Source: a virus. From it: a stretch of 64,000 nt of DNA. The position numbers and the translations under genes are program-made. Shown here piece after piece: positions 46,170 to 61,055 of this stretch; position 1 is the stretch's first letter, and every line of letters starts with the position of its first letter. The notes beneath the pieces were generated by a model. It made no database searches. It was not told the origin of the DNA and worked only from the letters and a program-made list of their open reading frames with translations. The stretch is from positions 1 to 64,000 of the IMG/VR virus record IMGVR_UViG_3300032285_001316; one strand, given 5' to 3'.

Positions 46170-46952
46170 CTATGCTGGCTGGTTAGACACCACCCGAACT
46201 TCAGACTCATCTTCCTCCTTTGTTCCTGCGTTACGATACTCCTCTGCGTACTCTACGTCCTTGATTTCAGCAGCCTCGGGAAGGTCATACCCAGACTCGG
46301 CTGCCTTAGCTGCCTCAAGAGCATCAACCTCAGTGCGCGCTTGTACATAGTACTTGGTTACTACCTCAACTACATAAACGCTTTTGGTTTTGCCTGGGCA
46401 GTCATCGAACCAGTCGTCAGGGTCACTAGAGTTGGCGCACCAACACCCGTCTTCATCGTCACGTTTGACATAGTCTGCGTGAGATGATGGGCTGTCCCAC
46501 TCCTCCATAGAGGTAAGGATGTTAGCCTTCATCGTGTACTCTGCGCCGTACTGTTGCTCCTCTTCCCACCAGACATCGAACTCAAGAGCAGGATACTTAG
46601 CAGACATAGCTTCAATTACAGGCAGAGGGTGACTCCACGCTGTCTCAAAAGAGATGTACACGCTTGTAGGATCAACGGAGACCTCTGCGTTACAGGCATC
46701 CCATTTCGTATTCCAGTGGGCGTTGTTCCAGTCATACCAGACACCTCCTTTAGTTTCGCCAAAGGAGCTACCCTCTACAGGAGTTCCAAGGTATTCTTCC
46801 TTTGTTAGGTCAGGCGTTACAAAGGAGTGGAATGAGAATGGGGATGGTTCATTACCAGCAAGCTTAGGGGTGTCCTCAATGTGTTCTAGGAACGCTATGC
46901 GGTCATCCTCTGGCCCAGTAATGCTAATGCGGTTGTATACCCAGTTAGGCAT
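46170..46952 (-). CDS. DUF1281/YubB ferredoxin-like domain protein
   Basis: MPNW..WYDWN..HW.TKWDA..F.TAWS.P. Confidence 0.75.
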   Translation of the reverse strand: MPNWVYNRISITGPEDDRIAFLEHIEDTPKLAGNEPSPFSFHSFVTPDLTKEEYLGTPVEGSSFGETKGGVWYDWNNAHWNTKWDACNAEVSVDPTSVYISFETAWSHPLPVIEAMSAKYPALEFDVWWEEEQQYGAEYTMKANILTSMEEWDSPSSHADYVKRDDEDGCWCANSSDPDDWFDDCPGKTKSVYVVEVVTKYYVQARTEVDALEAAKAAESGYDLPEAAEIKDVEYAEEYRNAGTKEEDESEVRVVSNQPA

Positions 46953-46980: not shown

Positions 46981-48930
46981 CTACACGCCAGCGTTGATTA
47001 GGTTGCGCTTGATGCCAAGGTTGACGATGCCACGACCAAGTGCGAACAGGTCATTGGTATCAGTGATGTGTACGGCTACCTCGCATCCGTGAGTATCTAC
47101 GGGAGTATCATCATTGTGATACGTTTCTCGTGGGTCAGATACAAAGGCTAGTGCGGTAAGCACACCAGCACGACGGAACTCTTTGAGTAGCTTGTCACTT
47201 GCTTCGCTGTCACTCCATACACCATCAGTGATAGTGATACAGAGCTTGATAGCACGCTTAGACTCAGCAAGAACATTCTTGGCATACTTGAGCGTTTGTA
47301 GTGGCTCAGTACCACCACGACACCAAGACATGCGTACGTTAGTACTTACTCGCTCCTCAGAGGAGTAAAGGACAAACGGACGGTGGTCATAGGCAAGGAC
47401 TGTAGTACTTGCGTTAGCACGATCAAGGGCACGCTTCATAGCCCACATGGACTCGAACGCTCCCTTGGCCATACCCTGCATAGACCCAGAGATATCTAGC
47501 AGGATGACTGCCTCGATGTCTACGGCATCCTCACGCCCGATATCCCACTCATCGAAGCACTCGTCAAGGTCAGTGCCTGTAACGTAGCGTTGGATGTTGA
47601 GACGCCCGTGCTCAGTACGGCGTAGCCAACCTGGGTCAAACTCTGCTCGCAATCGCTCTAACTCGGTAGCAAAGGACTTGGAAGCCTGTGCTATTTCCTT
47701 AGGAACAACCTCGTCAAAGGTATCGAGACGTGATGGCTTGCCAGCATTGGTAGACGTAAGCTCAGCGTCTGCGTTGTACTGCTTGATTGTCTGGGCAATC
47801 TCACGCGCCTTAGACTGCTTGACCGTGTTGATGATGTCCTTGGCAATATCTGACAGGGACTTGTCACCAGTAGCAGAGCCACTGCCCATGGAGTCAGGCG
47901 TACCATCTTGAGCGCCCTCGTTGCCGTTGGTATCTGCGGATGTTGCGTTATCCTGCTCGATAGCATCAGCCACACGTTCGCTAACCTTCTGCTGTTCTGC
48001 CTTGGACATGGGCTTAGACTTGGAAGCCTTCCACTCACCAGTAGCACGGTGGTCATGACCTGATGGGTCACTTACACGCTTCCACCCACTGTTGTTGTTC
48101 CAACTGTTGTTGTTCCAGTAGTCCGTAGACGTGCTAGGCAACTGGGTGATTAGTGCGTCGTACTTTTGGATAATGTCTAGCGCAACTGCGTAGTTCTTAG
48201 GGTCAGCAAGGTTGAGCACAATGTACTGGTCAATCAAGCTACCAATTTCCTGTACGTGCTGAGGCTGTTCGTACAAGTCAGCTACCTGCTTACGCAATTC
48301 CTTAGGCAAGTACTTGCGCCCATGGAGTAAAGGAAACGCTACATTCCATTGCTCAGGCTCATCCATGATGAACTTAGCGACTGCCGCCTTGAGCCAGTCA
48401 GCTACATTACCGAAACGCTTAGTCATATACATCTCGATACGCTGGTCTTCTAGAGCATTGAACGCCCGCCATAGACCCTGCTTCTGTACATCCTTGGCAA
48501 GGTTGCTACCAGCACGTGGGGTAAGGAGGATGTGGGCAATCTCGTGAAGGCTAAGCCCCTTGATGTTGAGCACGGTGTCGGGGCTGGTGAGATCCTGTAA
48601 CGAGTTCTCGTGAAACCAGATGTTATCGGAGTCTGACCATGCGGGAGCGTCAGGCGTGCCCTGAGCCATCTTGCCCCCCATGTCTACACGGATGGGGCGC
48701 AAGGTAAGAGTGCTAGCGAACTTAGACACAACTTGTAGCATACGTACACGTCTAGCAGTGTCGGGGTCTAGCAGGTCGGTGTTGTAGAACTTAGGCGTGG
48801 AAATGTTTGTGTTGGTAGCATCCTCGCCTACTTGGATGTTGTCGATAGCGTCTACCATGTTCTGCACGTGCTTGTCCTTGGAGGACTGTATCGCAGACAG
48901 GATTGACTGTAGTGCGTCATCAGGGTTCAT
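46981..48930 (-). CDS. VWA-domain protein with HExxH metallopeptidase-like motif (CobT/NorD-like partner)
   Basis: HEIAH, NALEDQRIE, MIDAS DISGSM, GGT, ITDG. Confidence 0.85.
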   Translation of the reverse strand: MNPDDALQSILSAIQSSKDKHVQNMVDAIDNIQVGEDATNTNISTPKFYNTDLLDPDTARRVRMLQVVSKFASTLTLRPIRVDMGGKMAQGTPDAPAWSDSDNIWFHENSLQDLTSPDTVLNIKGLSLHEIAHILLTPRAGSNLAKDVQKQGLWRAFNALEDQRIEMYMTKRFGNVADWLKAAVAKFIMDEPEQWNVAFPLLHGRKYLPKELRKQVADLYEQPQHVQEIGSLIDQYIVLNLADPKNYAVALDIIQKYDALITQLPSTSTDYWNNNSWNNNSGWKRVSDPSGHDHRATGEWKASKSKPMSKAEQQKVSERVADAIEQDNATSADTNGNEGAQDGTPDSMGSGSATGDKSLSDIAKDIINTVKQSKAREIAQTIKQYNADAELTSTNAGKPSRLDTFDEVVPKEIAQASKSFATELERLRAEFDPGWLRRTEHGRLNIQRYVTGTDLDECFDEWDIGREDAVDIEAVILLDISGSMQGMAKGAFESMWAMKRALDRANASTTVLAYDHRPFVLYSSEERVSTNVRMSWCRGGTEPLQTLKYAKNVLAESKRAIKLCITITDGVWSDSEASDKLLKEFRRAGVLTALAFVSDPRETYHNDDTPVDTHGCEVAVHITDTNDLFALGRGIVNLGIKRNLINAGV

Positions 48931-48977: not shown

Positions 48978-50399
48978 TTAGTTAGTGGAGTACTTACCGA
49001 TGCTAACGCCAAGCTCGTTGGCGATAGTAGGCGCTTCAGCATCAAAGCGCATCTTGATAGCGTCACGCTCACCGTCCATCTTGGGGTAGTTGGACAGGAG
49101 AGAGTTGACCGCGAACTCAAAGTTCAGGCTCGTAGCATGAGACACAAAGTTCTTGAGGATACGAGTGGACATTGGTACAGAGAACTCATCGTTCATCTCG
49201 GATGCTTCACGGATATTGCTAGCAAATCCTAGGAGCGTGAAGGATGGGATGAAGTTACTCTCGATGTTGGTATCGTAGGTGAACTCCAACTTAGTACCGA
49301 AGCGGTCAATCAGCGCGGCATCTTGACGGCTAGTACCTGTGTACCCAATGCCTGTGTTCTGGTCGGCAATGAATAGCACGTCGGGGTGTACCTTGATGAC
49401 CTCATTGAGTGGGTCGATACGCAACTCGCGCTCTTCCAAGAGGCTAAGGAACAACGGAGCAGCCTTAGGAGTCATACGCGTCAACTCGTTGATGAGGATA
49501 ACACTAGGCTGTTGGATTGCCGTAGCCAGTTGGCTGTACTTCCAGCGGGTAGTGTTACCTACGCCTGTCGGTACGAACCTACCCTGTGTAACTGTCTGGT
49601 CAATCTGCTGGGTACATTCGATGGTTACGAATGGCAAGCCCTTGATTGCCGCGTAGTTACGGGCACTCGATGTCTTACCTGTACCAGCATCACCAGTAAG
49701 CAAGACATTGTCTTGCTTGCTACGTGCGTTGTCGTATATCTGCTCCTCAGTAAGTCCAAAGAACTTACGTGTGAAGTAGGGCTTGACATCTGGCACGGTA
49801 AGCACTGCGCCATTCTCTGCGGTGCTGGCAACGATTGTGCTGTAATCCATGTCTGGCTCACTTTCTGTTGTCGGAGGCAATCCCACGGTGGGAAGCTCGT
49901 AGATAGGCTCACTCAAAGGTTGCGAAGCAACCCCCGCGTAAGCGGGCTCTAGTACTACTGGCTGTTCTACGGGAACAGGAACAACCTGAATGCTAGGGCT
50001 TACTACCACTGGGGTAGCAACAAGATACTTAGCAAGTACTGCTGGGTTAGCGATCGCGGCATCCATCACTTCGTCATAGACTTCGTGGAATGGGCGACCA
50101 CTTACCGTATCCATATCCTTTACTGTGCGTACAAGCTTCTGTACTAGCACGGTAGGGGTGATTGGGAACTGAAGCATCTGGTAATCGGCTGGGGTAAGGG
50201 CTACTGACATAGGCACGCCTACGCTATCACCTACGAAGCTCAGCACATCTCCACCAGATAGCTCTCGCCAAGCACCTGCCGTACCCCTAAGCCCCTTACC
50301 ATCACGGGTGAACCTACGGATATTGCCGTCTTGTAGAGGCACAATAACTACCTGCTGAATACCTGTTGGGGTATCTTGCTGAAGGATAGTCGCGAACAT
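48978..50399 (-). CDS. MoxR-type AAA+ ATPase (CbbQ/NorQ/CobS-like)
   Basis: GDAGTGKT, ILINE, DAALIDRF, STR; adjacent to the VWA gene. Confidence 0.88.
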   Translation of the reverse strand: MFATILQQDTPTGIQQVVIVPLQDGNIRRFTRDGKGLRGTAGAWRELSGGDVLSFVGDSVGVPMSVALTPADYQMLQFPITPTVLVQKLVRTVKDMDTVSGRPFHEVYDEVMDAAIANPAVLAKYLVATPVVVSPSIQVVPVPVEQPVVLEPAYAGVASQPLSEPIYELPTVGLPPTTESEPDMDYSTIVASTAENGAVLTVPDVKPYFTRKFFGLTEEQIYDNARSKQDNVLLTGDAGTGKTSSARNYAAIKGLPFVTIECTQQIDQTVTQGRFVPTGVGNTTRWKYSQLATAIQQPSVILINELTRMTPKAAPLFLSLLEERELRIDPLNEVIKVHPDVLFIADQNTGIGYTGTSRQDAALIDRFGTKLEFTYDTNIESNFIPSFTLLGFASNIREASEMNDEFSVPMSTRILKNFVSHATSLNFEFAVNSLLSNYPKMDGERDAIKMRFDAEAPTIANELGVSIGKYSTN

Positions 50400-50686
50400 T
50401 ACTTATCTCCTTTGTTGTTTAGAACAATGCGCTTGTATTGGACATTGTCTGTGTGGTTGTTTACGTACTCGCTATCAAACTCGATGCGACTACTGGGTAG
50501 GTCATTGTCTAACAACCTATCCTCTAAGTACCTGACTAGGTCAAGCACTGCGTAGGGGTCATTACTTGTGTCGAAGTACAGGGCATCTAGTACCGTGTAC
50601 AACTCTCGTGCCGTAAACACTACGTCTACGGTTGTGCTGTCGATGGGGTCTAGAGTCTCTACAACCTCATCATCTATCTCTAACAT
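50399..50686 (-). CDS. Acidic hypothetical protein
   Basis: SD AAGGAG; directly downstream of the hammerhead. Confidence 0.65.
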   Translation of the reverse strand: MLEIDDEVVETLDPIDSTTVDVVFTARELYTVLDALYFDTSNDPYAVLDLVRYLEDRLLDNDLPSSRIEFDSEYVNNHTDNVQYKRIVLNNKGDK

Positions 50687-50698
50687 GGGCTCTCCTTT

Positions 50699-50767
50699 TG
50701 ACTCATCAGGCTAGGCTCTTACCTAGCGACGTGTAGCCCCCACACACAAGGGCTACACGTTTCGTCA
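50699..50767 (-). ncRNA. Type II hammerhead ribozyme
   Basis: Minus strand: UGAC GAAA C GUGUAGCCC-loop-GGGCUACAC GUC^ GCUAGG uaagag CCUAGC CUGAUGA GUCA; full core and three stems. Confidence 0.92.
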
Positions 50768-50782
50768 TCTCCGAAGAGGGGC

Positions 50783-50950
50783 TCAGATAATCTCTGTGCG
50801 TGTCTCGCAGTAATCTACGCAACTAGGGCAGTCAGGGTCACCACAAGGGCAAGGCTCACCGTCTAGGTATGCGTACATCTTTGCGAGTGCTTCATCCTCA
50901 CTGTCTGCTGTGACAGTGTAGGACTCTCCTGTGAGGATTGTGTACTCCAT
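50783..50950 (-). CDS. Small Cys-rich acidic protein
   Basis: MEYTILTGESYTVTADSEDEALAK..CPCGDPDCPSC; SD AAGGAG. Confidence 0.6.
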   Translation of the reverse strand: MEYTILTGESYTVTADSEDEALAKMYAYLDGEPCPCGDPDCPSCVDYCETRTEII

Positions 50951-52585: not shown

Positions 52586-53027
52586 CTTGCTTTGCTCCTT
52601 TACTCTAGGGCTACCCTAAGGACGCCCAAGCTTGTGGGGGTTCTAGGGGGCGAGAGCCCCCTAAGTCTCTTTCGAGAGGCTTTGTGTGTTATCTAGAGAG
52701 ATAAAGACTTATAGAGAGAGACACACATACGTCTATACACGCTCTCCCTATAAGCCCTCACCTGTTACATATGACATACCCTAAGAGAGTTTCTCTATCG
52801 TGGGGATTCTGTCTTATGCCTGACTTATGTACATACCATGCCTAAGAGTGACTCTCACCCTTGTTAGCCTATGGCGATGTGCTTCCTAAGCCTAGAAACA
52901 CAAAAAGCCCTACAGGCTTACCTGTAAGGCTCTCTCTGATGCTAGTACCTGATACGAGTAAGGGGGGCTAGTCTGCGACCTGGCGGTACACTCGCTTAGC
53001 CCCCCTCTCTCTTAGAGCAGTAGCCTA

Positions 53028-60978: not shown

Positions 60979-61055
60979 GCCCCCTTAACTCAGTTGGTCA
61001 GAGTGCGATACTTGTAATATCGAAGTCAGGCGTTCGAACCGCCTAGGGGGCCCCA
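60979..61055 (+). tRNA. tRNA-Thr(UGU)
   Basis: Acceptor GCCCCCT/AGGGGGC, anticodon arm CGATA-CTTGTAA-TATCG, T loop GTTCGAA, encoded CCA. Confidence 0.93.

Follow-up and report, generated by a model that had tools for sequence, protein, structure and literature searches.

The window analyzed here, the first 64 kb of a 93,151-bp IMG/VR virus record that has direct terminal repeats and is estimated to be complete, contains a tightly packed block of small genes on the minus strand, extending from ~52.6 kb to 43.9 kb. A gap of 96 nt in this block is occupied by a type II hammerhead ribozyme motif (Table 1). A separate transcription unit may begin at the strong terminator-like hairpin upstream of the block. 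The 95-aa ORF that follows the motif overlaps the start of the AAA gene by 1 nt, and its homologues occupy the same place in three related loci (L003, L074, and L081). The initial annotation had placed a AAA/VWA pair downstream of the motif. The AAA half of this assignment held up, while the VWA match of the second protein, which is possibly CobT-like, was weak and fell below threshold. As WhiB proteins are characteristic of Actinobacteria and of the phages that infect them, the WhiB-like gene in the window indicates that the host is probably an actinobacterium.

Table 1. Features of the hammerhead locus and of the surrounding window
Feature	Coordinates	Strand	Basis or remarks
Terminator-like hairpin	52902..52935	-	Strong; 15-pair stem followed by a U run; precedes the gene block with the ribozyme motif
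55-aa ORF, upstream	50783..50950	-	Stop codon ends 15 nt before the motif; no Pfam or PHROG match
CUCUUC pyrimidine tract, candidate anti-Shine-Dalgarno strand (IIb)	50773..50778	-	Fold; otherwise 5′ arm and loop of the UUCG hairpin
CUC(UUCG)GAG mini-hairpin adjoining stem II	50769..50778	-	Sequence
Complete type II hammerhead ribozyme motif	50699..50767	-	Sequence; sole descriptor match in the genome; model R1
Stem II, 5′ strand UGAC (11.4-11.1)	50764..50767	-	Pairs with GUCA; pair set covaries in 57 relatives
Core G12 A13 A14	50761..50763	-	Invariant in alignments A1 and A2
Stem III hairpin, A15.1 (50760) to U16.1 (50729)	50729..50760	-	Sequence and fold
C17, with the predicted cut on its 3′ side (50728/50727)	50728	-	Position from the canonical hammerhead core
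Stem I hairpin GCUAGGU-AAGA-GCCUAGC	50710..50727	-	Sequence and fold
Core C3-A9, CUGAUGA	50703..50709	-	A1: all but N7 invariant; U7 in at least 90% of sequences
Stem II, 3′ strand GUCA (10.1-10.4)	50699..50702	-	Sequence and fold
Shine-Dalgarno sequence AAGGAGAG of the 95-aa gene	50690..50697	-	Sequence
GGAGAG, candidate 3′ strand of extended stem II (IIb)	50690..50695	-	Fold pairs it with 50778-50773
95-aa ORF, downstream	50399..50686	-	ATG at 50686, 12 nt after the motif
AAA_5 ATPase, CobS/MoxR-like, 473 aa	48978..50399	-	PF07728, E 5e-21; phrog_249 'porphyrin biosynthesis', E 2e-30
649-aa protein, weak VWA match	46981..48930	-	PF13519, E 0.006, below the curated cut-off; phrog_1576
260-aa protein, DUF1281_C/Api92-like ferredoxin-like domain	46170..46952	-	PF18406, E 2e-10; directly after the VWA gene
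WhiB-like transcription factor, 127 aa	45198..45581	-	phrog_472, E 2e-20
tRNA-Thr (anticodon TGT)	60979..61055	+	Sole Rfam gathering-level match in the window

Type II hammerheads have the strand order IIb strand, GAAA, stem III, H17, stem I, CUGANGA, IIa strand. Read on the minus strand from 50767 to 50699, the sequence consists of UGAC, GAAA, stem III, GUC, stem I, CUGAUGA, and GUCA, a complete motif of this type. All core bases are present (C3 U4 G5 A6 N7 G8 A9, G12 A13 A14, and, at H17, C rather than G), and the pairs at the junction are canonical (G10.1-C11.1, A15.1-U16.1, and G1.1-C2.1). Three helices surround the core, with 7, 4, and 13-14 pairs in stems I, II, and III, respectively, an arrangement supported by covariation in relatives. 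Stem I consists of six Watson-Crick pairs (GCUAGG/CCUAGC) and a U.G pair beneath an AAGA loop, and the 13 pairs of stem III (11 Watson-Crick and two G.U) are closed by a GUGUGU loop. As expected for type II topology, both the descriptor parse and the fold revealed that stems I and III are loop-closed and stem II is open. The minimum-free-energy fold of 101 nt is exactly this three-way junction (-40.9 kcal/mol, z = -3.9), which is retained in a 191-nt context.

These findings bear out the claim of the initial annotation that a type II hammerhead with a complete core lies here, since sequence reading, folding, and the descriptor parse all led to the same structure. The cut that it proposed, between 50728 and 50727, is where the canonical core predicts it. 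The 41-nt leader that it described is also present, spanning 50727 to 50687 after the predicted cut and carrying AAGGAGAG (50697-50690) ahead of the ATG at 50686, and the UUCG hairpin that it noted just 5′ of the hammerhead is correctly placed at 50778-50769. In L081, the counterpart of this mini-hairpin, at the same place, is AUCUC(CUAA)GAGAU.

Rfam did not match the element at the gathering score, whether in the 64-kb window or in segments of 301 nt and 101 nt. The gathering cut-off of the Hammerhead_II model, RF02276, is 37 bits. When RF02276 and the other models of its clan were run on the 301-nt and 101-nt segments at E ≤ 10, the element was again not matched, and the only site that RF02276 reported across the genome was an unrelated one at 11.4 bits. 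Thus, the Rfam search suggested as a check in the initial annotation came out negative at both the gathering score and E ≤ 10. This result is what would be expected if the element were a chance match to the hammerhead consensus.

Several lines of evidence contradict a chance match. We scanned both strands of the whole 93,151-bp genome with a descriptor that covers all three hammerhead topologies and demands CUGANGA, GAAA, A15.1-U16.1, H17, and stems of at least 4, 3, and 3 pairs; this element was the only match. Shuffling the genome 300 times with dinucleotides preserved produced 17 loose matches altogether, the best with 15 stem pairs compared to 25 in the element. A covariance model (R1), built from an alignment of 57 related elements with short loops (A1) from which the window was excluded, matched the element over its full length (1-60) with 61.8 bits and an E value of 2.7e-16, and matched nothing else in the window.

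The relatives also carry the marks of a conserved structure. In A1, 96.8% of pair cells were standard pairs compared to 72% in shuffles, double-sided changes occurred in 14 of the 17 pairs, and stems I, II, and III all covary. Part of this signal follows from the selection of the sequences, which had been pre-filtered by a descriptor demanding minimum stems. Throughout the 57 diverged sequences, CUGA-GA, GAAA, and U16.1 were invariant, while position 17 was A, C, or U. The descriptor filter has less effect on a second alignment, A2, which contains the 11 sequences of a subclade and for which only three stem III pairs had been demanded. Here, 11 stem III pairs are intact in every sequence (100% of cells), and 10 of them have changed by compensation. 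Together, the shuffles, the independently built model, and the covariation effectively refute a chance match, to which we assign a negligible probability. The element is very probably a genuine type II hammerhead ribozyme, as judged from its sequence and those of its relatives.

The failure of RF02276 is explained by the kinds of hammerhead that it detects. We parsed 99 distinct type II elements, 41 with a long loop I and 58, including that of the window, with a short one. In 35 of the 41 long-loop elements, 4-7 nt of loop I are complementary to the 3′ tail, which corresponds to the known pseudoknot. Most of the 58 short-loop elements have a 7-bp stem I with a loop of 3-4 nt, and none of the 58 has more than 3 consecutive nt of loop I that are complementary to the 3′ tail; in the window, the longest such run is 1 nt. 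The element does not belong to the common pseudoknot form of type II hammerheads, for which loop I must make at least 4 bp with the residues immediately 3′ of stem II. On ten related loci, RF02276 recognized seven pseudoknot-type copies (four of 12 in L011 and three of five in L026) and none of ~16 short-loop copies (in L021, L022, L003, L081, L033, L041, and L042). Thus, the model misses the element because it recognizes pseudoknot-type copies only; the failure is a limit of the model, and the motif itself is sound. The short-loop elements form a large, mostly metagenomic subclass that lacks the usual pseudoknot between loop I and the 3′ tail. Since this subclass is invisible to the Rfam model, surveys that use the model undercount phage ribozymes.

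Short-loop elements share other features. The first base of the loop is U in at least 90% of sequences, and the seventh pair, which closes stem I, is either U.G or U-A. A predominates at each of the three positions that follow stem II (in 41, 37, and 31 of the 58 elements) and at the one that precedes it (35 of 58). These A-rich flanks could make a tertiary contact that replaces the missing pseudoknot. Pairing of loop I with the 5′ flank (AAGAG/CUCUU in the window and GAUG/CAUC in L081) was also considered as an alternative pseudoknot. By eye, we judged it to be due to chance, as the distances differ and L003, L048, and L074 contain no equivalent.

The closest phage found via the AAA protein (L003; 64% identity) carries the element too, its stem III differing by two compensatory changes. 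A search for cultured close relatives found none, with the best phage matches to the AAA protein only ~30% identical. Scanning viral contigs for UGACGAAA...GUC...CUGAUGAGUCA yielded 13 stretches, many of them with arrays of type II hammerheads in which each copy lies just before a Shine-Dalgarno sequence; L011 has the most copies, with 12. A scan for stem I and half of the core (GCTAGG N3-12 CCTAGCCTGATGAG) retrieved five viral and 79 metagenome stretches, and only three from genomes. Although this pattern specified stem I and CUGAUGAG only, 73 of its 83 viral and metagenome matches also contained GAAA, stem III, and stem II. Placement relative to genes was regular: among the 99 elements, the preceding gene usually stops no more than ~20 nt ahead of the 5′ end, and a start codon follows the 3′ end by 4-49 nt. 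The spacing in the window, 15 nt to the stop codon and 12 nt to the ATG, is typical of this set.

L021 (9152-13225) contains nine short-loop hammerheads and L022 (78-672) contains three, none of which is recognized by RF02276, and many of the copies are followed by AAAGGCACACAC(A) and a start codon. In L011 (3609-9067), 12 pseudoknot-type hammerheads occupy 5.5 kb, four of which are found by Rfam; each lies ~20-25 nt before a start codon and is itself preceded by GAAGGAGGAC.

Bacteria, prophages, and phages are all known to carry type II hammerheads, some of them clustered around single genes (Perreault et al., 2011; PMC3088659). The clusters around genes of prophage operons show cleavage both in vitro and in vivo, and their proposed role is to cut long transcripts into gene-length mRNAs (PMC3088659). 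The window copy shares with these examples and with RF02276 the catalytic core and the circular permutation (open stem II, closed stems I and III), and with the published examples the intergenic placement in phage polycistronic units and the proposed role. It differs in being a single copy rather than part of an array, in scoring below the reporting level of RF02276, and in having no pseudoknot, a 7-bp stem I with a loop of 3-4 nt, and a 13-bp stem III. The pseudoknot itself was reported for only the majority of type II examples (PMC3088659).

Two further systems are informative. Type II hammerheads of Desulfovibrio vulgaris are active in vivo, as cyPhyRNA-seq captured both the 2′,3′-cyclic phosphate and the 5′-OH ends from cells (PMC8782182). 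These are ribozymes of the same type and adjoin genes of phage origin, although they come from another organism and have other sequences, and we liken them by type rather than by a comparison of structures. The HHphage hammerhead of haloviruses HF1 and HF2 is part of a polycistronic transcript and precedes the start codon of an early gene by 13 nt, with a mapped 5′ end within 3 nt of the cleavage site (PMC3088659). Its placement before a start codon resembles that in the window. However, HHphage belongs to an archaeal virus and is a structural variant that needs high salt or Mg2+, while the core and stems of the window copy are canonical.

By analogy with these systems, the element most likely cleaves itself after C17 within a polycistronic mRNA. 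We judge this likely because the core bases are conserved, the stems evolve by compensation, and related type II copies cleave. As the loop I/3′-tail pseudoknot, the usual tertiary brace of type II hammerheads, is absent, fast cleavage at physiological Mg2+ is not assured. It is conceivable, if improbable, that the hammerhead has decayed or become very slow and acts, uncut, as a structured spacer, its two stable hairpins buffering mRNA decay or ribosome traffic. The missing brace, the unusually long stem III, and the dispensability of the element in relatives (described below) would fit a spacer. In contrast, all 11 fixed core bases (CUGA-GA and GAAA), U16.1, and C17 are intact, and an invariant core in 57 relatives whose stems change by compensation is the signature of selection for catalysis and not for hairpins alone.

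A model for the self-cleaving element is as follows. The ribozyme would be transcribed within the minus-strand polycistronic phage mRNA and fold into the three-way junction, and the cut after C17 (50728) would part the RNA of the upstream small genes from that encoding the 95-aa, AAA, and VWA proteins. Because loops close both stem I and stem III in type II topology, both products would have hairpin-capped ends. The upstream product would end in the 13-bp stem III hairpin with a 2′,3′-cyclic phosphate, while the downstream product would carry its 5′-OH on the first nucleotide of the 7-bp stem I hairpin, beyond which lies the remainder of the 41-nt leader with its ribosome-binding site. From the general features of bacterial mRNA decay, we infer that ends capped in this way would be protected from end-dependent RNases and that the cut would thereby insulate one mRNA segment from the other. 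With both new ends capped by structure, the stability and translation of the two segments should become uncoupled.

Cleavage might also control access to the ribosome-binding site. In this addition to the model, which we regard as tentative, the CUCUUC tract 5′ of the hammerhead pairs with the GGAGAG of the Shine-Dalgarno sequence, extending stem II (helix IIb). After the cut, the two strands would be on separate RNAs and would fall apart, exposing the ribosome-binding site of the 95-aa gene; given the 1-nt overlap between that gene and the AAA gene, the freed site would also help the latter. The minimum-free-energy fold does form the extension, and the modeled probability that GGAG is unpaired rises from 0.10-0.39 in uncleaved RNA to 0.61-0.87 in the 3′ product. 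The products are predicted to associate weakly (~-5 to -6 kcal/mol). The case for this addition consists of thermodynamic modeling only, and the CUCUUC tract can form the local UUCG hairpin instead.

Comparison of relatives gave a mixed picture. Eight of the 11 subclade members form a helix of 4-6 bp in one fixed register, in which a tract 2 nt upstream of stem II pairs with AAGGA just after stem II. Between homologous flanks, there is a clean compensatory change from UCCUU/AAGGA to UCUUU/AAAGA. L003 is significant on its own, as only 0.15% of genomic 18-mers pair as well. However, the window copy is at chance level, with 28% of composition-matched shuffles and 21% of genomic 18-mers as good, and both it and L081 require another register with an internal loop of 5-6 nt. 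Moreover, pairing between the 5′ and 3′ flanks gave no signal across the 99 parsed hammerheads (mean z of -0.05 for long-loop and -0.26 for short-loop elements), so the 58 short-loop elements show no general flank pairing. Thus, modeling makes masking by an extended stem II plausible for the subclade, while the pairing is not significant for the window copy.

A broader proposal, which we consider unlikely though worth stating, is that the short-loop subclass as a whole is a natural translation gate. The Shine-Dalgarno sequence would form the outer strand of stem II and be exposed only by cleavage and strand separation, and the canonical pseudoknot would give way to some tertiary contact of the tiny loop I with either the A-rich 3′ tail or the internal loop of stem II. 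A search of the papers available to us for natural coupling of hammerheads to Shine-Dalgarno sequences, or for masking by them, in phages found none. In engineered bacterial hammerhead switches, the Shine-Dalgarno sequence is masked in a hammerhead stem, and RiboJ-type insulators are also hammerhead-based. These devices resemble the masking idea and the defined hairpin at the 5′ end of the downstream product, a likeness of function only, as they are synthetic and use other hammerhead topologies.

The position of the element relative to genes is conserved in part. In the window, L003, L074, and L081, the hammerhead is at the 5′ edge of a conserved block that contains the 95-aa gene, the CobS-like AAA gene, and the VWA gene, and this fixed syntenic place fits an element that delimits this mRNA segment. 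The genes immediately after the ribozyme vary. L081 and L074 have the order hammerhead, 122-aa gene, 95-aa gene, AAA gene; L003 has one additional small gene after the ribozyme, and in the window the ribozyme is followed by the 95-aa gene without any of these additions. A homologue of the 122-aa family was not found anywhere in the genome of the window phage. A specific link between the ribozyme and the 95-aa gene of the window was considered and rejected, as no homologue of this gene follows any other parsed hammerhead.

The element is also absent from some relatives. R1 found one copy each in the whole records of the window phage and the L003 phage. Two relatives that are 99% and 100% complete have the AAA/VWA module, and R1 detected no hammerhead anywhere in their records. 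For L002, L004, and L005, neither the descriptor nor R1 found one in the loci or the whole records. Thus, the element is single-copy, sporadic, and dispensable, and, given the two complete relatives that do without it, any role must be accessory. In L020, the hammerhead and a gene of the 112-122-aa family sit after the VWA gene and not before the AAA gene. Taken with the relatives that have the module and no hammerhead, this placement indicates that the element follows a small-gene cassette no less closely than it follows the AAA/VWA pair. The analysis gave no support to the suggestion in the initial annotation that self-processing stabilises or activates the AAA/VWA module.

These distributions raise the possibility, somewhat unlikely in our view, that the hammerhead is a boundary marker of a mobile small-gene cassette and not a regulator of the AAA/VWA block, its location before that block being a by-product of cassette insertion and loss. 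The element directly precedes the 112-122-aa gene in L081, L074/L041, L064, and L020 and is one gene removed from it in L003. The L020 pair after the VWA gene, the window genome, which on this reading lost the 112-122-aa gene and kept the ribozyme, and the ribozyme-free L002, L004, and L005 all fit a mobile cassette. However, a cassette accounts for where the element is found and not for its biochemistry, and it is compatible with our preferred reading, that the hammerhead cuts the mRNA in which it lies.

It has been known since 2011 that type II hammerheads exist, that they abound in prophages and phages, and that they lie around single genes, and the idea that they cut polycistronic transcripts dates from the same year. 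The window element is one more hammerhead of this known type, in a subclass missed by Rfam, and the biology of the single copy is ordinary. It adds a well-supported hammerhead to an uncultured phage with a probable actinobacterial host. The function of phage hammerheads has been a question since 2011, and the fixed placement between a stop codon and a ribosome-binding site offers a simple, testable job for them. In the nearest relatives, the pairing of the stem II flank with the ribosome-binding site adds to this case from placement.

The 112-122-aa proteins form a family with a C-terminal ...DACT.DA.LQ.A.FG... motif, and their genes usually lie directly after hammerheads of this subclade. Members are encoded in L081 (690-1055, minus strand), L003 (3240-3608, plus strand), L064, L020, and L041/L074.

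Loop III contains a recurrent sequence. The (U/A)GUGUGUG motif at 50739-50748 of the window (minus strand) is common to L081, L041, L042, L064, and L036 and persists in members of the subclade despite differing stem III sequences. It may reflect simple-sequence drift. In the window, CACGCACA at 50802-50795 could pair with this motif.
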